A stretch of DNA of 64,000 bases from an uncultured Methanosarcinales archaeon (GTDB lineage Archaea; Nanobdellota; Nanobdellia; Woesearchaeales; UBA583), in assembly GCA_964429995.1 (NCBI GenBank), contig CAYSDY010000002.1, forward strand, positions 6,019-70,018, in the 5' to 3' direction. Numbering within the stretch: position 1 is the stretch's first letter; every line of letters begins with the position of its first letter. Of the stretch, positions 39,990 through 52,992 are shown in pieces. Under the pieces are notes generated by a model. It searched no databases, was not told where the DNA came from, and worked only from the letters and a program-made list of their open reading frames with translations. The translations under genes were made by a program, and so were the position numbers.

Positions 39990-40328
39990 ATGTCTGATGA
40001 TAAAAAAAAAAAAATAGATGATTTGAAGAATCAACAACCAGCAAAAGTTAAATTTCCTTCAGGTGATCAATTTATAGGTATAGTTGAGAAGAGGCTTGGA
40101 GGTTCAAGAATGAATATTAAGAGTGTTGATGGTAGAGAGATCCTTGCAAGAGTTCCTGGAAGAGCGAAAAAATTTCTTTGGATAAGAGAAGGAGATATCG
40201 TTCTTCTTGAGCCATGGGAGTTTGATAAAACCAAAGCAGATCTGTTTTATAAATATAAACCAAATGAAATCAAAGCACTTGAAAGAAAGGGACTTTTAGG
40301 TAATCTTGAAAATATAGAAGAATTTTAA
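39990..40328 (+). CDS. eif1a: translation initiation factor aIF-1A (eIF1A)
   Basis: S1-like fold: GIVEKRLGGSRMNIKSVDGREILARVPGRAKKFLWIREGDIVLLEPWEFD. Confidence 0.85.
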   Translation: MSDDKKKKIDDLKNQQPAKVKFPSGDQFIGIVEKRLGGSRMNIKSVDGREILARVPGRAKKFLWIREGDIVLLEPWEFDKTKADLFYKYKPNEIKALERKGLLGNLENIEEF

Positions 40329-40894: not shown

Positions 40895-40974
40895 GTAAGG
40901 ATAGCGAAGTGGTCAAACGCGACCGACTCAAGATCGGTTCCTATGGTTCGAGGGTTCGAGTCCCTTTCCTTACA
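40895..40974 (+). tRNA. tRNA-Leu (anticodon CAA), ~80 nt with an extended variable region
   Basis: The acceptor GTAAGGA/TCCTTAC is perfect. The anticodon stem is ACCGA/TCGGT with loop CU-CAA-GA. The T-arm is GAGGG-TTCGAGT-CCCTT. The variable region is 11 nt. Confidence 0.75.
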
Positions 40975-41317: not shown

Positions 41318-41620
41318 ATGGAAAAGAGTGGATTAGAGGGTATAATAGATGATGGATTTGGCTATTTGCCAAAGAATGCTAAAAAGGTGTTGGGAGCTGG
41401 TGTGCTTTATGTATTTTTATTGGGTGGTGTTGATTCTGCTGATGCATATGGTATGATGAAAAAAGGTTTAGAAAATCCTGATTATGGTGCCAAGCAGGGA
41501 ATTGTATTGGTTTATGAGGGAGTAAGTAAGCCTAATTTGCCTGGATATAAAGGAAATGATGTCAAACCAGAGAGTTTAAAAGGATATGATACTGAAAAAA
41601 GATATGCTAATAAGAGGTAA
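41318..41620 (+). CDS. hypothetical protein (100 aa)
   Basis: An ORF with one TM-like segment (VLGAGVLYVFLLGGV). Confidence 0.35.
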   Translation: MEKSGLEGIIDDGFGYLPKNAKKVLGAGVLYVFLLGGVDSADAYGMMKKGLENPDYGAKQGIVLVYEGVSKPNLPGYKGNDVKPESLKGYDTEKRYANKR

Positions 41621-41633
41621 ATAATCATTTAAA

Positions 41634-42314
41634 ATGTCTAATTTTTTTAAAAAATCTAAAAAAGGATTATGTGGTGTACTTTTAGGTTTAGGTGCAAGTA
41701 TTATTCCTTTATCTGTTGCAGATGCTGCTTTATATTTGAAGATTGATAAGGTTATTCCATACGCTAGCATTATGGAAAGTGCTAGAAATAAGGCTTTTGA
41801 TTTATCAACTGATCCTAGTATTAATGTTGTTGCATCTTCTCCAGATGGTAATTTTGTTTTAGATGATGTATTAGTTGATCAGATATTTAAAAAATATAAA
41901 GAAGGTATTGACTTGTTATTGTTAAACAGACATGAAGAACCTGTTGGAATGATTACTTTTGAAGATTATGGTTCAAAAGGTACAAAAATACATGAGGGAT
42001 TATTAGATAAAAAAAAAATAAATTCTAGATTTATGTTCTCAATTGTTCCTTTAAAGGATCAGTTTTCATCTTTTATGCTTAAGCTTAATAGTGATTATGA
42101 ATCAAAAATAAGATCTCAAAGGGTTGATAATGTTTATCATATTTCAATTTATGATAGTAAGGATAGTAAATTGTCTGCTAATGAAAAAATAGATGAATGT
42201 GTTCTTGCTGTTGTTTCTGATGGCAAAGTTAGAAAAAATCTTGTAGAAGGTGCACAATTAAGGATTGATAAAGCAGATTTTGGTTTTTATCAGGGAAGAT
42301 ATGCTAATCAATAA
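41634..42314 (+). CDS. secreted hypothetical protein (226 aa)
   Basis: Signal peptide KKGLCGVLLGLGASIIPLSVADA. Confidence 0.45.
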   Translation: MSNFFKKSKKGLCGVLLGLGASIIPLSVADAALYLKIDKVIPYASIMESARNKAFDLSTDPSINVVASSPDGNFVLDDVLVDQIFKKYKEGIDLLLLNRHEEPVGMITFEDYGSKGTKIHEGLLDKKKINSRFMFSIVPLKDQFSSFMLKLNSDYESKIRSQRVDNVYHISIYDSKDSKLSANEKIDECVLAVVSDGKVRKNLVEGAQLRIDKADFGFYQGRYANQ

Positions 42315-42386
42315 ATATTTTTATATTTAAACACAATACAACTTAATAGTGGTAAATTTTATAAATAAGTAATTGTTACTAATATA

Positions 42387-43334
42387 ATGGCTTATAACTC
42401 TTATTTTGATAAGATACTTAAAGAAGATCCTTTTTTTAGGAAAGGATTTAAACAACAATATTACAGAGGATGTCTTGAAAATATATTGGATGAATTACAA
42501 AAAGATGTTTTAAATGTTGATGATTTTTATAGTATGGTAAGATTAGTTTTACATCCTGCAAGAATAATAAGAGGAGTTATTGATTATAAGTTAAGTTTTC
42601 CATATGCACAATCTTTAGATGTTTTAATGCAATCTGCATTAGATTTGTCGCTTGAAATTTATTCTTTAGGTCAAAATTTGCCTTTAAAAATTAATGAATT
42701 TAAAGGTAAAATAAATGATACTGGAAACTATTTGCTTCTTGAAAATGAAATATGTCAAAATGTTGATGGAATAACATGGAAGGCATCAAATCCGGTTAAA
42801 ACTAAAAAAACAGTAGAAGAACTTATTGGTAAAACAAACAAATCTCCAGTGCTTTTTGTTGCTCTTGGTCATGGTGGAGTTGCAAGTGGAATGGATACAT
42901 ATTTAAGATATTGTGATATGTGTAAAGATAATGATTCAGCTTTTTATGTTGTAAGATTTTCTACAAGAAAAATGAAAGATAAAATACCTTGTGTTGATAG
43001 TTATGATATTAATTATCTTAAACAGAATATAGAAAACAGAATTACTGTTGTTTTTGATGAAGATAAGAGTACTGGCAATACATTAAACAGTGCTGTATCT
43101 TTTTTAAGAGATAATATTTTTTGTGGAATTGAACCTATTGGTCTTATAAATCTTGATTCAAGTGATGAATTACAAAATCAAACAGGAAATGATATGATAA
43201 TGTTAAAGAGCAATTTATGTTTTGGTAAAAAAAACATAAATGTAAAAATAGTTAATGAATATGGAGTTATAAGGTATCAAAGAGATTTTGAAGAAATTGA
43301 TGATTTAGATGATTTGGAAAAATATTGTATTTAA
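42387..43334 (+). CDS. phosphoribosyltransferase (type I PRTase)-like protein with a ~150-aa N-terminal extension
   Basis: PRPP-binding-like motif ITVVFDEDKSTGNTLNSAVSFL (hydrophobic4-D-E-D-x-S-T-G-x-T), preceded by VLFVALGHGGVASGMDTY. Confidence 0.5.
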   Translation: MAYNSYFDKILKEDPFFRKGFKQQYYRGCLENILDELQKDVLNVDDFYSMVRLVLHPARIIRGVIDYKLSFPYAQSLDVLMQSALDLSLEIYSLGQNLPLKINEFKGKINDTGNYLLLENEICQNVDGITWKASNPVKTKKTVEELIGKTNKSPVLFVALGHGGVASGMDTYLRYCDMCKDNDSAFYVVRFSTRKMKDKIPCVDSYDINYLKQNIENRITVVFDEDKSTGNTLNSAVSFLRDNIFCGIEPIGLINLDSSDELQNQTGNDMIMLKSNLCFGKKNINVKIVNEYGVIRYQRDFEEIDDLDDLEKYCI

Positions 43335-43337
43335 AAA

Positions 43338-43856
43338 ATGGTTAATAAAAAAATAAAAAACATGATAATATCATCTGCAATATTTGCAAGTATTGGTTTG
43401 TTTTCTTGCAATGCTGATGCAAATTATTATTTTAAGACAAGTATTGTTAAAGAACCAGTTAAAATGTTTGATGATATTGTTGCATTAAAATCAGATAATG
43501 GGAAAATTGAGGGAATAATTTCAAAAGAAATATTAAATAAAAGAGGAGCTGTTGATTTAAACGGATTATTTATTGATAGTAATCCTTTGTTAGAAGAGGT
43601 TTTGATGTATTATGAAAATCGTATAAAAAAGTATAATGAATTAATAAATATGGGTTTGTCTGATCAAATAAAAGGTTATGATGGATATCTTCTTTTTAAA
43701 AAATGTGATCCTGCTGATTCATACAAAAGTAGTGGATATGAGATTTTAGGAATATTTTCAGGTGTTTCTATAATGGGAGGTGAATATCCTAAAAAATCAG
43801 TTTTGATTGTTGCTGATGATATGTTAGAAAAACTGACTAGAAAATATGATAGATAA
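43338..43856 (+). CDS. lipoprotein (172 aa), hypothetical
   Basis: Lipobox-like signal SAIFASIGLFSC|NADA. Confidence 0.45.
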   Translation: MVNKKIKNMIISSAIFASIGLFSCNADANYYFKTSIVKEPVKMFDDIVALKSDNGKIEGIISKEILNKRGAVDLNGLFIDSNPLLEEVLMYYENRIKKYNELINMGLSDQIKGYDGYLLFKKCDPADSYKSSGYEILGIFSGVSIMGGEYPKKSVLIVADDMLEKLTRKYDR

Positions 43857-44022
43857 TAGTACATTTGATACAGGAATAAAAAAACTTAAGATTAAATAAA
43901 AGTAATTTTTAAAAAAATTACAAAATGTTTATCTAATTGAATTTTAAAATTCTCTATGTATTTCTTTTTGAGTTTAAATCGGACAAAGCTATATTTTGAC
44001 GTTCCGTTCAATTGAGGGATGT

Positions 44023-44788
44023 TCATTCTCGGTTGTTTAAATAGGCTGTTGAGAGGGGAGCTAAGTGACTAAAATAGGGTTTTTCTTCAATTCTAACAGT
44101 CAAAAAAGATCTTGCGTAAAACGTCAATGTAACCGATCGTTTAGGGGAATTTTGGTGTAAACAGGTAGCTAACAGGTGAACTTTCGGATTTTTGATTTTG
44201 TAAGCAAGTCTCAAATAAACACTCAATTTTTTGTATTGTTTGCTGAGTGTACTTTTCACCTCTGTTTGTAATAAACACATACTGCGATTTTTGGTTTAGT
44301 TTTTGCAGTTCTTTTTTAACTTTTTGTGAGAGTATTACTATTCTGTCTTTTTTTTCTTTTGCTCGCTTTAAGTGAATGGTGTTTCTGTTAAAGTCAATGT
44401 CTTGCCATTTAAGGTTAATGATCTTACTGATTCTTAGCCCTGCCGAATATCTTGTTTGAAAAATTAATCGATGGTTGATGTTCGTAGTTACCTTGATTAA
44501 ATTATCGATCTCTTCTTTTGAGAGTATTATCGGGAGCTTTTTTTCTCTCTTGACATTTTGCAGGTTATCAAGAACTTTTTGTATTTTAGCAGATTATTTT
44601 TTCATGATATTAAGGTAGAATTTTATTGTAAAGCCTGCTGATCGAATGGTTTCGTCAGATTTGTCTTTTTCTATGAGTGAAAATAAGTAGTCTCTTGGCT
44701 GTTTCTTTGATACAATAAATCTGTTAATATGATGTAAATAATTATTGATCGTCTTTTGTGAATATCCTTTAAGTTTGCATTCTTGCAT
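44023..44788 (-). pseudogene. XerC/D-phage-type tyrosine recombinase (integrase), inactivated by an in-frame TAA and a downstream frameshift
   Basis: The N-terminal SAM-like domain (44594-44788) is KLKGYSQKTINNYLHHINRFIV. In the same frame after TAA at 44594-44596 comes the catalytic domain LPIILSKEEIDNLIK...RYSAGLRISKIINLKWQDIDF (with the first catalytic Arg), running to a stop at 44141. The C-terminal segment ...HLLATCLHQ...TLTFYARS (HxxR/Tyr region) is in another frame (44023-44280). Confidence 0.7.
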
Positions 44789-44995
44789 GACCTGTGCATC
44801 TATTTAAGTTTCAAAACTTGTTTTCCAAGCATAAAATGAGGAGATTTCAGAAATATATAAAAATTCGTATTTTGCAATAAAAATAAATATAAAACGTAGT
44901 ATTATTACGTTTAATAGTTGTTATATTCAATTTGTCCTTCTAAAAAAAAGAAGTAAAAATGGGGGCTTCTAAAAAAAAGGGATAAATTCTAAAAC

Positions 44996-45140
44996 TTTGC
45001 ATTTGGCATAGTTGCACTAAATTTTAGTCCTTCGAGGAATATAACAAAGATTTAGAGGTTTCGTTCGGTTGCACCTTATTACATCCAAATTTTTACTACG
45101 CAAAAACTTCGTTAAATTCCGATGTTAGTTGCAATTATTT
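44996..45140. repeat. iteron-like array of three GTTGCA(C/A) motifs at 57-60 bp spacing (45011, 45068, 45128), with interspersed G-runs
   Basis: tagTTGCACtaaatttt / cggTTGCACcttatta / tagTTGCAAttattttt. It sits in the non-coding stretch between the integrase remnant and the 45300 gene. Confidence 0.3.
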
Positions 45141-45299
45141 TTAAGGGCTAAAAAATTGAAGGGGACAATTTTGTTATTTAAGGGCGAGAAAACTATTTCG
45201 GAAACTTTCCTGAAAAATCAACATAAATTTTATATATTTCAATGTTTTAATAACAATTGTAAGTTAAAAAACTGAACAACTTTTAGGGGGAAAATAAAA

Positions 45300-45620
45300 A
45301 TGACACAAGCTTTAGAACAAATGTTAAAAGACACTTTTGTGCCAAACATTGCACAAAATAGAATGTATCAAACAATAGATACATACACAAGCGGAACAAT
45401 AGCACTATACACACCGCCAGTAAAAATATTTGATTTTCCAAATATTGGAGCGACAGTTCATATTCATGGAAGTGCAGATAGAAACGCTCTTTATGGTGGA
45501 GATGTAAGACCTATTGGAAGTAATGAACCATTTAGAAGGTTAAATTCTTATGAATCCGCAATGGCTGATTATTATCTGACACAAGCCGGAATCAAACCAA
45601 TTGAACCTAAAAAATGGTAA
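45300..45620 (+). CDS. hypothetical protein (106 aa), first gene of the island cassette
   Basis: A strong bacterial-style RBS (tttAGGGGGaaaataaaaATG). Codon usage and GC content differ from the host genes. Confidence 0.5.
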   Translation: MTQALEQMLKDTFVPNIAQNRMYQTIDTYTSGTIALYTPPVKIFDFPNIGATVHIHGSADRNALYGGDVRPIGSNEPFRRLNSYESAMADYYLTQAGIKPIEPKKW

Positions 45621-45644
45621 TTACATTTTTTATTTTTTCTTATT

Positions 45645-45917
45645 TTGGAGGGAATGTTTATGGTATTTGAAATCGACCCAAATAAACTAAAAAAAGATTT
45701 AATTTATGTTTATGAATGCTACTTGTCAAGCAATACTGACCTAAATAAAATAGCATATGAAAAAGCTCAAGAAATGGATGGTCTTTGGAGTGGAGATTTC
45801 TTATTTAAAAAATCTATAGAACAAGCTATTGGTGGGCTTAGATATATCTATCTTGAACCCAAGTTACCAAAATTAAAAGCTAATAAAATACTTTTAGATT
45901 TAAAAAATGAAAAATAG
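45645..45917 (+). CDS. hypothetical protein (90 aa). The probable true start is the ATG at 45660 (MFMVFEI...), preceded by GGAGGG.
   Basis: An SD-like ttGGAGGGaatgtttATG, 25-40 nt after the previous stop. Confidence 0.45.
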   Translation: MEGMFMVFEIDPNKLKKDLIYVYECYLSSNTDLNKIAYEKAQEMDGLWSGDFLFKKSIEQAIGGLRYIYLEPKLPKLKANKILLDLKNEK

Positions 45918-45951
45918 TATTGAAGTTAAATTAAAATGAGAGGTAAAGTCC

Positions 45952-47022
45952 ATGCATTCACTTGATTCTTTATTACAGGATGCTTCTTCTTTTATTAATT
46001 CAGAATTCAATTTACAATTAAGAAAATCGCAATTGAAACCTTATTCTTTTGAAAATTGGCAAGAATTTTGTCAAATTAATGGTTTTGATGTCAATAGTGA
46101 AGGTTTATATGTTCCTGTTTCTTATTCTGCTTATGTGAGAACTGATAGTAATGTTTTGGTTTCTAATCTTTTTCATGAGTTGTATGGTCATGGTTTATTT
46201 TGTGAACATTCCCAAATTGGAAAAAGACTGATTGAAATAATCCAAAATAGCGGTGATGAAAAAGGTTTTATGTTTGATGAAGTAAACCTCCAAGAACAAC
46301 CTCTTGGCTTAGCTAAGTATAATATTCATAATTACGAAGGTTTTGCTGTTTGGCTTGAAGCTTTGCTTTGTGAGGAAACCGATAATTATAAAGTTTGGCA
46401 ATTAAAAAGAGATAAGTTACCTGATGATTTTGTTTCTTTATTTGAATATTTTGAAGATGTAGAACAGAGATTATCTCGTTTTGGTTTTATGTCCCAGCTT
46501 GGTTTCCCTAAATTTTATAGTGATGATAAAGTTTTAGATGTTGCAAAAAGAGTGTACAGTTCTGCTTTTGAGAATATTGATTTTGTTGTTCTTTATGGTT
46601 CTCAGAAATCTGAAAGTGATATTGATTTGTTTATTATTTCAAACAATCCTTCTTCAAATTATTTTAATGGTTGGATTGATATTTATGAATTGAATAGAGA
46701 AGAGTTTAATCAATTATCTAATAATTTCGATATCAGTGTAACTGATCCATTGTTTACAGGTAGATTAATTTATGGGAATAGAAATTCTTTTGAACAATTG
46801 AGAAACAAAATTTTGAATCTACCTATAACTCAAGAAGCAATTAATCATAATAATTCAGAAGCACAAAAGCAGAAAAAATATTTACCACATCTCTCTGATA
46901 CGGATAAACGAAGAAAAGATTGTTTATCATATATTGATAGTTTTTCTCAAAATGCAGAGCAATTAAGTTTAGGTAACAAACCGTTAACATTAGCAAATCT
47001 TAAAGATATTTATACAAAATAG
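45952..47022 (+). CDS. 356-aa protein with a polymerase-β-type nucleotidyltransferase motif (hGS...SDIDL) in its C-terminal half, and an N-terminal domain bearing HELYGHG
   Basis: IDFVVLYGSQKSESDIDLFIISNN resembles the GS-x(n)-DhDh NTase signature, although the spacer is short. The N-terminal FHELYGHGLFCEH is not a canonical HEXXH. SD is GAGAGGtaaagtccATG. Confidence 0.55.
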   Translation: MHSLDSLLQDASSFINSEFNLQLRKSQLKPYSFENWQEFCQINGFDVNSEGLYVPVSYSAYVRTDSNVLVSNLFHELYGHGLFCEHSQIGKRLIEIIQNSGDEKGFMFDEVNLQEQPLGLAKYNIHNYEGFAVWLEALLCEETDNYKVWQLKRDKLPDDFVSLFEYFEDVEQRLSRFGFMSQLGFPKFYSDDKVLDVAKRVYSSAFENIDFVVLYGSQKSESDIDLFIISNNPSSNYFNGWIDIYELNREEFNQLSNNFDISVTDPLFTGRLIYGNRNSFEQLRNKILNLPITQEAINHNNSEAQKQKKYLPHLSDTDKRRKDCLSYIDSFSQNAEQLSLGNKPLTLANLKDIYTK

Positions 47023-47105
47023 TTTCCCCGTCTTGATTTTTTTATTAGATGGTACTTTGTGCTTCATAAAAATAAAATTGTCCTTGGATAATTGTCCTTT
47101 ATGTG

Positions 47106-47381
47106 TCACTTCGTTCTTTGGATAGTACGCCCTTGAAAAAAACTCTTCGGGATTTTTTGTTTAGCAAAATTTAATAAAATAACATTATTATCGTCGTTAA
47201 AATCAATAATTTCTGGCGTAAAACTAGTGCCGTTTAGTGCTAATAGGGTGTCCCTTTCACACAAGTAAAAATTAAATCTGGAATTTCTATGAATTGTTTT
47301 TTTAACAAATAATTCAGAGCTAATCCTATATAATTCTACTAGATTCCTTTTTCCACCAGTTAGTTCTGTTAAATATTGCAT
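47106..47381 (-). pseudogene. fragmentary ORFs (47106-47381 and out-of-frame continuations up to ~47740 on the minus strand), probably a degraded gene
   Basis: Adjacent minus-strand reading frames (...DYNVENIKKRIVGPTHSKESF...; ...KKNCGSDSFKRVILESDFDNILKIGKIITERLNSIK...*; MQYLTELTGGKRNLVELYR...) are broken by stops and frame changes. Confidence 0.3.
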
Positions 47382-48436: not shown

Positions 48437-50914
48437 ATGAATAAGAATCCATTTTTGTTTTATATTTTGGCTTTGTTGTTGTGTGTGTCTTTTTCTTATG
48501 GACATACATATTCAAATTTTGATAAAAGCATAACAGTTCAAGGTCCTGAAAAGATAAATGTACTTGACAGGTATCAGGTAAAAATAAGCATAAATAATCC
48601 TGATGTAATAAAATATGCAAATCTTTTAGAAATAGAATGTAATGGGATGATTATTTTAGATAATGAAATATCAGACAGTTTGTTATTGTCAAAAGGATTT
48701 GTAAGTCCTCTTAAATATTATCAGTATAATGGTGAAAAAGAGATAGTGCTTGATGTTGCAAGTCATTTTCATCCAATTCCAAGTCCTAATGAAAACGTTA
48801 TGCCATGCCCTATAAGGTTTAAACTTGTAATTGATGAAAAAAATGAAAAATTAAAACAGGATTTAAAAGATAATTTTAAAACAGATTATTTGACAAGATA
48901 TATATCAGAAGTTTATTTTAATCCTAATACAACTTCAATAGATTTTAATATAACAATTCCTGAAACAGAAATCAGAAAGGATAAGGTAACTACATCAATT
49001 AGTGCTGATCCGAAAAACTATAATAGTGCAATAAGATTTTATGCACATTTTGATGAATATGGAAATAACATGAATTTTACTGATGGATCCGCAGTAGGTA
49101 CCGGTTTTGGGAATGATAAGAATGATTTTTTTGACTTTAAAAATCCTGATTATGAGAAGTTTTTTGTGCTTGATAATAATAACTATCATTATGAAATTAG
49201 AAAGATTAAAGATGCTTTAAAATTGCCTGATGATGTTGTTAGATCACAAAAAGGGACAAGTGGATATTATAGAATTCATCAAATAGTTTCTGAAAGTTCT
49301 TGGGAGAATAAAGAAAAAGGAATAAAAGAAACAATAATTACAACTTTTTTTAATGCAAGGATAAATTATTATGGTTCAAGAAGCATGCTTATAGGTTTTC
49401 ATAATACACACAGAGTTGATAAAGCTAAAGTTGATTCTGAAATGAAAAGAATTGAAAATGATATAATGAACTACATAAAATCATTAGAAATGCAATCAGA
49501 AAAATTAGTGTATCCTGTATATTCAAAACCCCAAAACATTAAGCATGAAAAAGAAGAAATAAAAGATGTTGAAGATAGGGATTTTAAAATAAAAATTAAA
49601 AATAATGAAAAGACTATCTGGAATACTGGTAGAAAAAATACTTTAAAAGATAGTGAGAATACAAATTTTGAAATACTTGTAAATCTTGAAATAAATGCAA
49701 AAGATGAAGATGGCAAAAAAATAAAAAATCCATCAAAGGAACAATTATATAATAATGTTTATGTTAGTGCAAGACTTTTAGAAAATAATTCTCAACTTGG
49801 ATTAAGTTCAAAACTTTCAAATGAATGGATGAAAAAAGCAAGTTCTGATTTAGAAACCATTGAGGTTTTTGGAAAAGGTCCTTTATTTTATGATGGTCCT
49901 TTTAAACCAGTTGAATATATTGAAGTTTATCTTTCTGATGAAAAAGGAAATGCTTTAACTGAAAAAGTGATGTTTAAAGTAAAACTTAAAGATGGTACTC
50001 CTAAAATAACATTAAAAAAAGAGATAGTAGAGGTACAGGATGGAGATAAGAGAGGGATTGAATTTAAAGTTAGTGATGCTGATAGTAAAGAATTAAAATG
50101 CAGAATAACAGTTCCAACATCTTTTGCCTATAAATCAGGAATTCCTACATCATATATTGAATATGATGGAAAACAAACAACTTTTGCTGAATTTGATTGT
50201 AAGGATAGTGAGACTATAAAATTTATGTATTATGCTCCTAAAAAGATAGGAAATTTTGATCTTAATGGTGAACTTTCTGCTCTTTCAATGTGGAAACTAC
50301 AGGAAGGGACTGCTGTTAATCTAGTTGCAGATCTTGTAGGTATAGGAGTTGAAAAAAGACTTAAGTTTTTAAGAGATGGAGCCGAACTTAATCAAAGATT
50401 TGTAAATATTGATCCAAAAGATATAGATAGTCTTAAAAGGGCTCAGACTTTTGGTTCTGCACATGATTTTCTTGATAAAGGGAATAAACTTTCAACTCAT
50501 ACACAAAATGTTATAAAAGTTACTCAGACAGGTAAAAATATTGATAATACACAAAAACTTTTTAATCAATCTGTAGGTTCAGGCAAACAGGGATGGGTTG
50601 AATGGGGAGCTGATTGGGGAGTTTTTGGAATAGATGTTGCACAAACAGCTGTTGGTGTTGTTATGATGGCACCATCCAAAATTCCTGTTGTAGGAACTCT
50701 TGCAGGCAAAGTTACTGGAAAATTAACTTTAGCATTTAATCTTATGACAAATGTTTGGAAAGGAAATTTAGAATATCTTTCAAAAGTTGAAAAAATAGAT
50801 AGGGCACAATTATTCTATTTGCCATATCCTGTTATAATTGAAGTGGAAGATAAAGATGGATTTAAGGTTGCAGAAATACAAAACATAATGATTGCCTACA
50901 ATTGGCTTGAGTAA
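48437..50914 (+). CDS. large secreted protein (825 aa), hypothetical
   Basis: Sec signal MNKNPFLFYILALLLCVSFSYG. The C-terminal ~100 aa are hydrophobic and G/V-rich. Confidence 0.6.
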   Translation: MNKNPFLFYILALLLCVSFSYGHTYSNFDKSITVQGPEKINVLDRYQVKISINNPDVIKYANLLEIECNGMIILDNEISDSLLLSKGFVSPLKYYQYNGEKEIVLDVASHFHPIPSPNENVMPCPIRFKLVIDEKNEKLKQDLKDNFKTDYLTRYISEVYFNPNTTSIDFNITIPETEIRKDKVTTSISADPKNYNSAIRFYAHFDEYGNNMNFTDGSAVGTGFGNDKNDFFDFKNPDYEKFFVLDNNNYHYEIRKIKDALKLPDDVVRSQKGTSGYYRIHQIVSESSWENKEKGIKETIITTFFNARINYYGSRSMLIGFHNTHRVDKAKVDSEMKRIENDIMNYIKSLEMQSEKLVYPVYSKPQNIKHEKEEIKDVEDRDFKIKIKNNEKTIWNTGRKNTLKDSENTNFEILVNLEINAKDEDGKKIKNPSKEQLYNNVYVSARLLENNSQLGLSSKLSNEWMKKASSDLETIEVFGKGPLFYDGPFKPVEYIEVYLSDEKGNALTEKVMFKVKLKDGTPKITLKKEIVEVQDGDKRGIEFKVSDADSKELKCRITVPTSFAYKSGIPTSYIEYDGKQTTFAEFDCKDSETIKFMYYAPKKIGNFDLNGELSALSMWKLQEGTAVNLVADLVGIGVEKRLKFLRDGAELNQRFVNIDPKDIDSLKRAQTFGSAHDFLDKGNKLSTHTQNVIKVTQTGKNIDNTQKLFNQSVGSGKQGWVEWGADWGVFGIDVAQTAVGVVMMAPSKIPVVGTLAGKVTGKLTLAFNLMTNVWKGNLEYLSKVEKIDRAQLFYLPYPVIIEVEDKDGFKVAEIQNIMIAYNWLE

Positions 50915-50925
50915 TTAGATAAAAA

Positions 50926-51696
50926 ATGGTAAGAAAAATAAAAAAAAATCAAAAAAGTTTCATTTTATTTACAATTACAATATTAATGTTGCCTTTTGTA
51001 TTTTATGAAAGTTTTGCTTGTGATGATTTATATAGTTTGATTGATAAATACTACTCAGTATCAAAACAAGAAAATTATGATGAATACATACAATTGATGG
51101 ATACAGAGTATATATATAAAAATATTGCTGATAGCGAAAGTTATGAAAATTATGTTAAATCAGCCTTTGAGGTTTATGATACAAAAGATTATGATATAAA
51201 ATATCATAAATGTGTGAAAATTTTAGATGATTCAGAAGCTCTTGTTTTTTTTAACATGAAATCAAGTATTAATTCTGATGGAAAAACATATAATTTACAA
51301 AGAGATTATGTTGCATCATTAAGAGATTCAAACGGTTTTAAAATTCAGTTTGTAATGGATCTTGAAACATTTTCATTCCATCAAAACATGATGTATTCTT
51401 TAATGTACATAAATCAGACAAAAGACATTCTAGAAAAGGATATTAAGCACATTGAAGAATATGAAAAATATAATGAAAACATACAATTGATAGAAGAAAA
51501 ACAAGATTCTTCATATACATTTTTATGGTTGATATTAATTTTGATATTGGTCTTATCTTTACTTGTGATTAAAAAATACAGAAAAAGGATTCTTAAAAAA
51601 ATTAGGAATGGTACAAAAAAAGATGAAAACAATCAAATAGAAAAGCCTAATAACAAATCAGTACCATTAAAAAATAAAAAAGGAAAAACAATGTGA
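50926..51696 (+). CDS. type-I membrane protein (256 aa) with an N-terminal signal and a C-terminal TM anchor followed by a basic tail
   Basis: N-terminus FILFTITILMLPFVFYESFA. TM helix FLWLILILILVLSLLVIKKYRKR. Confidence 0.5.
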   Translation: MVRKIKKNQKSFILFTITILMLPFVFYESFACDDLYSLIDKYYSVSKQENYDEYIQLMDTEYIYKNIADSESYENYVKSAFEVYDTKDYDIKYHKCVKILDDSEALVFFNMKSSINSDGKTYNLQRDYVASLRDSNGFKIQFVMDLETFSFHQNMMYSLMYINQTKDILEKDIKHIEEYEKYNENIQLIEEKQDSSYTFLWLILILILVLSLLVIKKYRKRILKKIRNGTKKDENNQIEKPNNKSVPLKNKKGKTM

Positions 51697-52394
51697 TAAT
51701 GTTTTTATTCCTTTTTTGTAGTAACATTTATAAAATAATAAATTGTAGTATCTCTACAATGACAAAAAACAAAATGTTATCTAATGTGGTTGCTACTGGA
51801 TTATCTGGTTTGCTTTTTTTAGGATCTGCTGATAAGGCTATGGGAGCCAATTACTTTTTTGGTGAGCTTTCAAAAGGTGATAGGAGTGAAAATATGATTG
51901 CTATTGAAAAATCAGGGGAAATTTATGGTCTTGTTTCACAAAATTTGTCAGAATATATGGATGCTGTAACACTTGCACCAGGTTTATCATTAAAAGAAGT
52001 TAGTAAAAATGATGTTTTAAGTTTTTTTAACAAAAGAGATAATCTTGAATCAGAACTAAGATCATTAGGTTATGATTCAGATTTGCCAGATGAAGGAGTT
52101 ATTTCTGTTAAAGATGGTTGCATTGTTTTAGCATATGATAAAGCTGGATATGAGCCAGTTGCATCTTTTTTTGGAGCTAAATTAAGTCTTGTTGAGAAAG
52201 ATTCAGAAAAAATGTCTCCTAAAAGATATTTTTTTATTGATTCAGATAAAGATACACTTAAAAGTTTTGTTGAAACATATAAAAAAGAAAATAAAACAAG
52301 TGAATCAACAATTGACAAATTTAAACAAACACAAGGAAATTTTAATGCTAATCTTTATTTAAGTCATCTTATTGCAATAGGCTTAAGATATTAA
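51693..52394 (+). CDS. secreted hypothetical protein. The likelier start is the Met at 51759 (MTKNKMLSNVVATGLSGLLFLGSADKAMG).
   Basis: An ORF with a signal peptide after the internal Met. Confidence 0.45.
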   Translation: MIMFLFLFCSNIYKIINCSISTMTKNKMLSNVVATGLSGLLFLGSADKAMGANYFFGELSKGDRSENMIAIEKSGEIYGLVSQNLSEYMDAVTLAPGLSLKEVSKNDVLSFFNKRDNLESELRSLGYDSDLPDEGVISVKDGCIVLAYDKAGYEPVASFFGAKLSLVEKDSEKMSPKRYFFIDSDKDTLKSFVETYKKENKTSESTIDKFKQTQGNFNANLYLSHLIAIGLRY

Positions 52395-52464
52395 TTTAAT
52401 TTTTTATTATTTGAATGATATTATTTTTAGTAATATTTATGAACAGAGAAGTTGTTACTGGTGT

Positions 52465-52992
52465 ATGGTACAAAATATGTATAGTAAAACAGTAAAGGGT
52501 ATTGTTACAGCAGGAGCATTTGCTCTTGGAGTGTTATATGGTGGCAATTTAGCAGAGGCTAGAGAAGTTTATTTAAAGGCATCTAGTGAAGTTGATAAAT
52601 TATCTTTAGAATATGTTGTAAAGGCAAATAAAGGGAAAACAATAGTTGGTGCTTTAAATACTCCTTTACCAGAGGGTAGTTTAGAGAAGGGTTTAGTGAT
52701 AGTAAAAGCTAAACCAGGAGAAGTAGAAAGTTTTAGTAAGAAACTTGAAGGTTTATTGAGTAAAAGTGAAGCTATAGGAGTTCATACAGATATGATGAAT
52801 GCTTATAGTGGAGGTAATCCTGATGAATTAATTTATGTTTTAGGTGGAACAAGTAATGCTGATAAGAAACCAACTACAAAGTTATATGTTACATTTGAAG
52901 AAGAGAAAACAACCTTAAAAGAGAAAGGAGGCGGTGAAGGAGGCTCTGGCGGTTCTGGAGGCTCTGGCGGAGGCAATGGAGGGAGTTATTAA
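52465..52992 (+). CDS. small secreted protein A1 (176 aa) with a (GGS)n-rich C-terminal tail. It is the tandem paralog of 54535-55062.
   Basis: MVQNMYSKTVKGIVTAGAFALGVLYGG... ends ...KEKGGGEGGSGGSGGSGGGNGGSY. It is ~97% nucleotide-identical to copy A2. The six-frame ORF starts earlier at 52411, but homology with A2 begins at MVQNMY. Confidence 0.55.
   Translation: MVQNMYSKTVKGIVTAGAFALGVLYGGNLAEAREVYLKASSEVDKLSLEYVVKANKGKTIVGALNTPLPEGSLEKGLVIVKAKPGEVESFSKKLEGLLSKSEAIGVHTDMMNAYSGGNPDELIYVLGGTSNADKKPTTKLYVTFEEEKTTLKEKGGGEGGSGGSGGSGGGNGGSY

Follow-up and report, generated by a model that had tools for sequence, protein, structure and literature searches.

A DPANN archaeal locus combining a polymorphic pair of small genes with a predicted peptidase-like nucleotidyltransferase: a candidate conflict module

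Introduction

Among the described systems that lie closest to the locus analysed here are the polymorphic toxin–immunity systems (Zhang, de Souza, Anantharaman, Iyer & Aravind, 2012; PMC3482391), and peptidases of the zincin-like kind are recognised both as processing components and as signature genes in polymorphic toxin loci (DUF4157; PMC6393860). Another is cls.004259 (representative NEQ050), described from DPANN archaea as a minimal nucleotidyltransferase (MNT) fused to HEPN (Makarova, Wolf & Koonin, 2019; PMC6393860); its authors suspected a toxin–antitoxin (TA) module but found the degree of conservation and the housekeeping context puzzling. The locus in question consists of three genes, designated by their open reading frames (ORFs) as ORF1, ORF2 and ORF3, in a stretch of 64,000 nucleotides of contig CAYSDY010000002.1 (assembly GCA_964429995.1), hereafter referred to as the window. 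The central feature of the module is that its two small genes, ORF1 and ORF2, form polymorphic pairs. We give an about even chance to the proposal that the whole is a conflict-type system of DPANN archaea, made up of a polymorphic effector, its immunity partner and an enzyme that processes or modifies the effector.

DPANN archaea are abundant, ultra-small symbionts, most of them uncultured and with genomes that are for the greater part uncharacterised, and to our knowledge little has been established about their competition, kin recognition or action on hosts. The module is widespread in DPANN, often with several loci per genome, and ORF3 represents a new enzyme architecture, in which an HEXXGH peptidase-like domain, a nucleotidyltransferase (NTase) of the KNTase/MNT-like kind and a HEPN-like bundle are combined. 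If the module does serve in conflict, it would open conflict between DPANN cells to direct testing and would supply five or more new miniature effector folds together with their cognate inhibitors, possibly a new case of protein nucleotidylation coupled to proteolysis, and a possible explanation of the 'unusually conserved MNT–HEPN' DPANN cluster. If it does not, the co-evolution described below would still single out ORF1 as the probable substrate or partner of an enzyme that is conserved in, and specific to, DPANN. All of the evidence is computational, and coordinates are positions in the window (Table 1).

Polymorphism and pairing of the small genes

Alignments of ORF1 homologues revealed an N-terminal module of ~40 residues with the consensus LEQMLE...R.YQTID.Y..GT.ALY-T/S-PP, followed by a Gly/Pro-rich linker of very variable length and a C-terminal module that differs between homologues; whole ORF1 proteins range from ~100 to ~240 residues. 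In an AlphaFold2 model of ORF1 built with database homologues, the predicted local distance difference test score (pLDDT) is below 56 over residues 1–35, in which only a short helix (residues 3–12) is formed, and the N-module is probably disordered. The C-module of the class found in the window (class A) is predicted to be folded, with four strands and one helix. A disordered N-module and a folded C-module, as predicted here, would be expected of a recognition or leader segment carried on a functional domain.

Seven motif classes of C-module (A–G) were distinguished by eye. Comparison with hhalign found the classes unrelated except for weak links between B and D and between E and F, leaving at least five mutually unrelated groups. 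Neither ORF1 nor ORF2 had a match in Pfam, NCBIfam or PADLOC, and the six other ORF1 classes and four partner families had none in PADLOC. The C-modules and partner families likewise gave no match in Pfam, and no toxin domain was recognised among them.

The association between C-module and downstream gene was evaluated in 51 pairs, for which the last 55 residues of ORF1 (with SEG filtering) and the next downstream gene were clustered independently. The last 55 residues were used because whole ORF1 tails beyond the motif, with their low-complexity Gly/Pro linkers, lumped all classes together. The two clusterings agreed with an adjusted Rand index of 0.77 and an adjusted mutual information of 0.80, values reached by 0 of 10,000 permutations (maximum 0.21). 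The resulting pairs of C-module class and partner family are near one-to-one: A/ORF2 family, B/c4, C/c3, D/c7, E/c8, F/c12 and G/c14, where the c numbers denote partner families. The ORF2 family follows ORF1 in 13 of the 15 class-A pairs when assigned by BLAST cluster, and a hidden Markov model (HMM) of ORF2 recovers the other two. Profile–profile comparison found the partner families mutually unrelated, c3 and c4 excepted.

A partner gene follows ORF1 in 51 of 52 cases, the lone exception having ORF2 300 bp further on, whereas 15 of the 60 partner-family genes are orphans without ORF1. Toxins and their immunity proteins would be expected to show such an asymmetry, in which the partner can stand alone and the effector cannot. 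Extra ORF2 copies without ORF1 are present in loci L018 and L030 (loci are cited by L numbers), and in L030 ORF1 is followed by three ORF2 copies. Tandem arrays also occur: ORF3 is followed by (ORF1, c4), (ORF1, c4) and (ORF1, c8) in L065 and by two ORF1–ORF2 pairs and a third ORF1 in L087/L088, and further tandem-cassette or orphan examples include L018 and L059. In L022 (4823–5999), an orphan partner-family gene (c22) directly abuts ORF3, with no ORF1 there, and an IS200-like Y1 transposase gene (Pfam E 1e-33) lies ~260 bp upstream of the c22 gene.

The small genes have been shuffled with respect to ORF3. The ORF3s of L036 and L037 are 93% identical yet have different C-module classes beside them, and ORF3s that are only 25% identical can share a class. 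The nearest ORF3 relatives of the window (L004–L006; 74–78% identical) carry class C with c3, while the class A/ORF2 cassette of the window recurs with ORF3s only 40–58% identical (L018, L028 and L032); the classes are scattered over the neighbour-joining tree of ORF3. Mantel tests on 33 loci gave a correlation of ORF3 with the ORF1 N-module (rho 0.67, p<0.0005) and none with the C-module (0.04) or the partner (0.05), both not significant. The C-module was correlated with the partner (rho 0.22, p<0.0005), and the N-module was not correlated significantly with the C-module (rho 0.02). These results indicate that the N-module goes with ORF3 and the C-module with the next gene, which places the breakpoint within ORF1.

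A close relative from the same study offers a view of cassette mobility at the nucleotide level. Homology of its loci L072 (4776–6102) and L073 to the window (87%) spans only 45085–46186, and their flanks contain unrelated housekeeping genes (HIT, a thioredoxin-like gene recognised by eye, RNase HII and a PolD-small-subunit-like gene). ORF1 and ORF2 are intact in these loci and ORF3 is cut inside HELY|GH, which argues that ORF3 is dispensable for carrying the ORF1–ORF2 pair. The truncation of ORF3 in L072 reflects either decay of this copy or the edge of a recombined segment.

ORF3 as a predicted bifunctional enzyme

In its AlphaFold2 model (27 homologues; pLDDT 94, predicted template-modelling score 0.86), ORF3 is composed of three parts: a gluzincin-like domain, an NTase of the KNTase/HalB/MNT-like kind and a HEPN-like helical bundle. 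The two motifs on which the original prediction had drawn are both present, HELYGHG at residues 75–81 and VLYGSQKSESDIDLFII at residues 213–229. Conservation was counted in 216 full-length family members, and the putative catalytic residues are conserved in more than 95% of them: H75 (210), E76 (206), G79 (213) and H80 (210) in the N-domain and G216 (211), S217 (210), D223 (212), D225 (208) and D243 (209) in the NTase. Beyond HELYGH, the N-domain has three near-invariant acidic residues, E85 (209), E129 (213) and E136 (211), one of which may be the third zinc ligand, and Y327 in the C-terminal bundle is conserved in 193.

The N-domain is predicted to adopt a thermolysin-like catalytic-domain fold, with weak Foldseek matches to peptidases (E 0.16–0.5). 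Residues 1–190 gave no Pfam or NCBIfam match in any of the 27 members, and these searches placed them in no curated peptidase family. The motif had at first been read as HExxxH and set apart from canonical zincins; it is indeed not HExxH, but the hexapeptide HEXXGH has a functional precedent in M49 dipeptidyl-peptidase III, where it forms the zinc site (PMC5805324). Stand-alone N-domain genes are present in L057, L061, L062, L064, L067 and L069 (ORF3 matches of 167–206 residues), those of L057 and L069 still having ORF1 and a partner gene upstream; the exhaustive search described below also returned hits of ~170–190 residues, and stand-alone NTase-plus-bundle proteins occur in the database. 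These may be split genes, truncated copies or working single-domain proteins.

The C-terminal half contains the motif of Pol-beta NTases (hG[GS], [DE]x[DE] and a third acidic residue), with an unusually short spacing of five residues between GS and DxD, on what is in the model an NTase alpha/beta fold. Foldseek matched this half to KNTase (E 1e-4), HalB (TM ~0.5), MntA and GlnE. ORF3 alone matches Pol-beta NTase models of Pfam only below the gathering threshold (PF18765, E 1.2e-4; 22.7 bits against 26.9), and for PF18765, 26 of the 27 aligned homologues match this family (best E 4e-7), which is also the precomputed annotation of many homologues. The NTase signature proposed for this half from its letters is borne out. 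The ORF3 family has no sequence relative in the PDB. A word-indexed search found 160 homologues at 46–85% identity, and an exhaustive HMM search found 522 clusters at 50% identity with E<=1e-3 and 153 with E<=1e-30, most of them full length. No relative was found with the ORF3 profile in IMG/VR viral contigs, and a viral origin was dropped.

An NTase fused to a HEPN-like bundle invites comparison with an intracellular TA or abortive-infection module resembling type VII, in which ORF1 (or ORF2) would be a toxin acting on the producer. ORF3 could then neutralise the toxin by nucleotidylation, in the manner of MNT on HEPN, or its peptidase could free the toxin on phage infection, the third gene being an antitoxin or adaptor; we consider a module of this kind, and either form of its mechanism, unlikely while giving it some weight. 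The NTase is structurally similar to MntA/MNT antitoxins and to HalB, for which there is also a weak NCBIfam match (NF051895; 16.3 bits, with a cutoff of 190), and the bundle is fused to it. The module lies near an integrase pseudogene, moves between contexts, decays and is present in several copies per metagenome-assembled genome (MAG). Compact NTase-type systems, AbiE among them, are reported to be over-represented in DPANN (PMC12988326), and Makarova et al. take the DPANN MNT–HEPN fusion as a probable TA module (PMC6393860). Against these points, the Rx4-6H motif of HEPN RNases is absent among the conserved columns of ORF3, and no separate HEPN toxin stands beside the NTase, neither ORF1 nor ORF2 having a HEPN match in Pfam, NCBIfam or PADLOC. 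The HalB match is at noise level, as is the sole match of ORF3 in PADLOC-DB v2 (PDC-S09; E 0.02, 13 bits), so that the suggested check against defence-system models yields no named family. A shared N-module with swappable C-modules, tandem cassettes and orphan partners is not normal for TA pairs, and the loss of ORF3 while ORF1 and ORF2 persist is contrary to a role for ORF3 as an essential antitoxin. Absence from IMG/VR viral contigs is neutral in this respect. The original prediction of an MNT/HEPN-like TA or anti-phage module therefore stands as far as the NTase and the flavour of conflict are concerned, but the locus has no canonical family, no Rx4-6H motif and no matching defence model.

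Distribution and synteny

The ORF3 profile, run against GTDB species representatives, yielded 68 loci, all DPANN-like; several MAGs carry two ORF3 loci and one locus has two ORF3 copies. Named homologues come from Woesearchaeota, Nanoarchaeota, Pacearchaeota, Parvarchaeota and Aenigmatarchaeota MAGs. Several GTDB records with a family member bear the label Methanosarcinales, Saccharibacteria, Gammaproteobacteria or 'bacterium' (e.g. L006, L010, L033 and L056); since their contigs have DPANN-like genes, errors of binning or labelling are the probable cause, and we do not take these records as evidence that the family has spread outside DPANN. The source of the window is itself a DPANN (Woesearchaeota-type) archaeon and not a bacterium: its archaeal nature is indicated by a gene for eIF-1A and by the DPANN origin of all named ORF3 homologues, and bacterial assumptions are therefore inapplicable.

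An ORF1-family gene was detected beside ORF3 in 43 of 71 loci by tBLASTn and iterated HMMs, with few exceptions on the strand of ORF3 and mostly upstream of it, and an ORF2-family gene was near ORF3 in 19 of those 71. Among the loci flanked by 1.5 kb or more on each side, an ORF1-type gene is present in ~35 of 40 when BLAST-cluster members and divergent genes are added; the divergent genes in L041, L042, L048, L061 and L062 were recognised by eye only and were missed by the N-module HMM. In the reverse direction, all 17 metagenome loci retrieved through ORF1 alone (17/17) have an adjacent ORF3-family gene. No other gene was consistently linked to ORF3 across the loci. The neighbourhood check suggested at the outset thus revealed a conserved ORF1–ORF3 linkage, but ORF2 is only one of several cognate partners. 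The many homologues of ORF3, and the fact that ORF1 and ORF2 homologues adjoin those of ORF3 in dozens of independent contigs, show that the three ORFs are real genes and not chance ORFs.

Interpretation and alternatives

A constant N-terminal part, swapped C-modules, a co-varying next gene, tandem and orphan cassettes, decoupling from the backbone, and mobility with decay, which together make up the defining signature of polymorphic toxin–immunity systems in genomes (PMC3482391), lead us to read the module as a system of this type. ORF1 would be the polymorphic effector, with a disordered handle of ~40 residues, a Gly/Pro linker and a small folded C-module. ORF3 would be the constant cytoplasmic enzyme, recognising the N-module of whichever ORF1 variant adjoins it, and may cleave ORF1 in or near the LY-PP/linker junction, nucleotidylate it, or do both, with the result that the effector would be matured, licensed or restrained. 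ORF2 would act as the immunity protein, neutralising the class-A C-module and protecting the producer. An action of ORF3 on ORF1 is the most economical mechanism, because the N-module co-evolves with ORF3 and ORF3 has two apparently active catalytic centres. Statements at the level of architecture, namely the gene structure, both enzyme folds of ORF3 and their conserved catalytic residues, the polymorphism of ORF1, the co-variation of its C-module with the partner and the co-evolution of its N-module with ORF3, the shuffling, tandem arrays and mobility of the cassettes and the orphan partner genes, are much firmer than those on toxicity, the enzyme–substrate relation and the chemistry, which we infer, together with neutralisation by ORF2 and the target, be it a competitor, a host cell or the producer.

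Several observations weigh against a toxin–immunity system. ORF1 has no signal-peptide-like or hydrophobic N-terminus and no secretion genes recur in ORF3 neighbourhoods; with neither a signal peptide nor a transmembrane segment nor a linked secretion apparatus, ORF1 has no apparent route of delivery. The N-module has no strictly invariant residue as a nucleotidylation target, the tyrosine of the LY motif being F or E in some homologues. The permutation statistics are inflated by the shared ancestry of related loci, an effect that the decoupling and Mantel tests mitigate in part, and the loci are fragmentary MAG contigs in which ORFs were called mechanically. Finally, in a subgroup formed by L043 (5535–9013), L044, L049 and L064 there is no ORF1-like gene and an Lrp/AsnC gene overlaps the start of ORF3; rpS7/rpS12 genes lie downstream in L043, L044 and L064, and L049 stops at the contig edge. 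In its setting this subgroup recalls the housekeeping context reported for cls.004259, and it is a hint that the role of some ORF3 members, at the least, lies outside conflict. MAG STB_88 holds both types, L044 from the Lrp subgroup and the ORF1-linked L042, and Lrp-like genes are also found near ORF3 in L019, L021, L028 and L032.

On account of the same subgroup, we retain as an alternative a cellular role in which ORF3, possibly identical with cls.004259, is a DPANN maturation or regulatory enzyme and the ORF1–partner pairs are its variable substrates or adaptors. Such a role is in our estimation improbable, and equally so for the forms it might take, such as regulators or surface or host-interaction factors with their chaperones. 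It would accommodate a family that is large and unusually conserved (46–85% identity across many lineages), the rpS7/rpS12 genes downstream in three of the four Lrp/AsnC-linked loci, the housekeeping context that Makarova et al. note for cls.004259 in DPANN (PMC6393860) and the lack of a detectable toxin fold in ORF1. It does not sit well with the ORF1-linked majority, which has no conserved context beyond the module, and multiple copies, tandem cassettes, orphans, class shuffling and pseudogenisation are marks of conflict loci; moreover, the rapid swapping of matched pairs is hard to reconcile with a chaperone and its substrate. As a housekeeping gene, ORF3 was rejected for this majority, whose context is unconserved and whose loci are multicopy, shuffled and decaying.

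A more specific version of the toxin–immunity reading is a secreted archaeocin-like antimicrobial, made in the manner of ribosomally synthesised and post-translationally modified peptides (RiPPs). The N-module would be a leader cut by ORF3, the NTase would tailor the core by nucleotidylation, ORF2 would confer immunity and export would be unlinked; we regard this as quite improbable. The leader-like disordered N-module ahead of a variable folded core, the several precursor-like genes beside one enzyme and the fusion of a peptidase domain to a tailoring-type enzyme agree with it. Radical S-adenosylmethionine (SAM)/SPASM genes occur within 2.5–5.8 kb of ORF3 in five loci (e.g. L062:220–1275) and a SAM-dependent methyltransferase gene directly downstream of ORF3 in three (e.g. 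L011:7927–8673), both linkages being loose. On the other side, the cores are folded domains of 55–150 residues and not short peptides, neither a transporter nor a C39-type peptidase is encoded in the loci, the radical SAM genes do not adjoin ORF3 in a consistent way, and we know of no Pol-beta NTase that acts as a RiPP tailoring enzyme.

Returning to polymorphic effectors and their immunity partners, we put forward more tentatively, as a possibility that we think somewhat doubtful, that the module is an undescribed, DPANN-specific self/non-self or conflict system in which the peptidase–NTase recognises the common disordered handle and, through cleavage and/or nucleotidylation, licenses a diversifying set of miniature effectors with new folds, every one paired with an immunity protein of its own. 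In that form it could be used in competition between episymbionts or on host cells without a classical secretion system.

Gene structure and genomic surroundings

The three genes are co-oriented on the + strand, with the lengths expected from the original prediction (106, ~85 and 356 residues). For ORF2, a start at ATG 45660, giving 85 residues, is supported by public gene calls on identical contigs and by the GGAGGG motif ahead of it; the mechanical call begins at TTG 45645 and gives 90 residues. Intergenic gaps of 39 nt (ORF1–ORF2) and 34 nt (ORF2–ORF3), and a Shine–Dalgarno (SD)-like motif read from the sequence 7–8 nt 5' of each start, agree with the tight spacing and separate SD sequences that had been noticed earlier. 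With a TATA-like box upstream and a T7 run downstream, likely an archaeal terminator of the three-gene unit, the genes look like one transcription unit. No second copy of ORF1, ORF2 or ORF3 is present within the window, and no att-like direct repeats were found around the module. The GC content of the module (0.29–0.30) is unremarkable relative to the rest of the window. Over positions 1–64000 the GC content is ~28%, and the GC skew is strongly positive on the + strand where genes are on that strand and collapses at 28–36 kb, where genes are on the minus strand.

Table 1. Features of the three-gene locus and its surroundings, in window coordinates
Feature	Position	Strand	Remarks
eIF-1A	39990-40328		
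tRNA-Leu(CAA)	40895-40974		
Tyrosine-recombinase pseudogene (XerA/integron-integrase-like)	~43890-44790	-	~500 bp upstream of module
Upstream region moving with cassette	45085-45299	+	87% nt homology to L072 begins at 45085
Archaeal TATA-like box TTTATATA	45229-45236	+	read from sequence; candidate promoter element
SD-like AGGGGGA	45285-45291	+	before ORF1
ORF1	45300-45620	+	106 aa; class A polymorphic small protein
ORF1 N-module	45300-45419	+	aa 1-40; ..ALEQMLK..RMYQTIDTY..GTIALYTPP; conserved in all classes
ORF1 C-module, class A	45420-45617	+	aa 41-106; ..VHIHGS..LYGG..NSYESAMADYY..; swappable part
SD-like GGAGGG	45647-45652	+	before ORF2
ORF2	45660-45917	+	85 aa; partner of class-A ORF1; candidate immunity/neutralising protein
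SD-like GAGGT	45940-45944	+	before ORF3
ORF3	45952-47022	+	356 aa; conserved predicted bifunctional enzyme
ORF3 N-domain, predicted gluzincin-like metallopeptidase fold	45952-46521	+	aa 1-190
HELYGH, HEXXGH zinc-site motif	46174-46191	+	aa 75-80
ORF3 NTase core	46522-46776	+	aa ~191-275
GS and DxD	46597-46626	+	aa 216-217 and aa 223-225
Third carboxylate	46678-46680	+	D243
ORF3 C-terminal four-helix bundle, HEPN-like/KNTase C-domain-like	46780-47019	+	aa 277-356
T7 run	47037-47043	+	15 nt past ORF3 stop codon; candidate terminator

The tyrosine-recombinase pseudogene is a mobile-element remnant near the three genes, which had earlier been placed inside such a remnant. It consists of a 64-residue SAM-like N-terminal ORF (44594–44788), an in-frame stop and ~150 residues in the same frame, and its catalytic C-terminus is gone. 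Between it and the eIF-1A and tRNA-Leu genes lies a run of lineage-specific genes (41318–43856), two of which encode signal-peptide-like N-termini; these genes had no family match and no homologue among the 68 GTDB loci, and no att-like direct repeat of the tRNA-Leu gene was found. On the other side, a 91-residue ORF at 47106–47381 (-) converges on ORF3, and 48437–52992 (+) encodes an 825-residue protein with a signal-peptide-like start followed by three more genes; these had no Pfam or NCBIfam match and were seen on contigs of the same organism only.

Comparison with known systems

Compared with the type VII HEPN–MNT system (MntA/HepT; PDB codes 6m6u, 7ae9 and 5yep), ORF3 has its HEPN-like part fused and without Rx4-6H, adds a peptidase-like domain of 190 residues and has a GS-to-DxD spacing of five residues; the locus has three genes instead of two, and its partners are polymorphic. 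The likeness of ORF3 to HalB (PDB codes 9dbh and 9dbj), ANT(4') (1kny and 6un8) and the uncharacterised structure 3c18 is structural only, with 12–16% identity, and in contrast to Hailong and ANT(4') the loci have no conserved HalA-like membrane partner and no aminoglycoside context. Among the gluzincins, it is above all the zinc site of M49 dipeptidyl-peptidase III that the N-domain recalls, since it carries the same HEXXGH motif. The ORF3 family resembles cls.004259, compared by description only, in being DPANN-restricted and unusually conserved and in its similarity to both MNT and HEPN; the description of that cluster includes no peptidase-like N-domain, no ORF1 or ORF2 partners and no polymorphism (PMC6393860).

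The polymorphic toxin systems share with the present module a constant N-terminal part, interchangeable C-modules, a co-varying small gene downstream, tandem and orphan cassettes and shuffling that is decoupled from the backbone. The module differs from them in that the effectors are tiny (~100–240 residues) and have a disordered handle of 40 residues in place of large trafficking or repeat domains, in that there is no link to a secretion system and no C-module or partner belongs to a known toxin or immunity family, and in that the constant element is a separate gene for a peptidase-like and NTase protein, which is undescribed in those systems as far as we found. To the same extent, the new elements are the DPANN host clade, the miniature effectors, none of them from a known family, and the separate fusion enzyme that combines a peptidase-like domain with an NTase.

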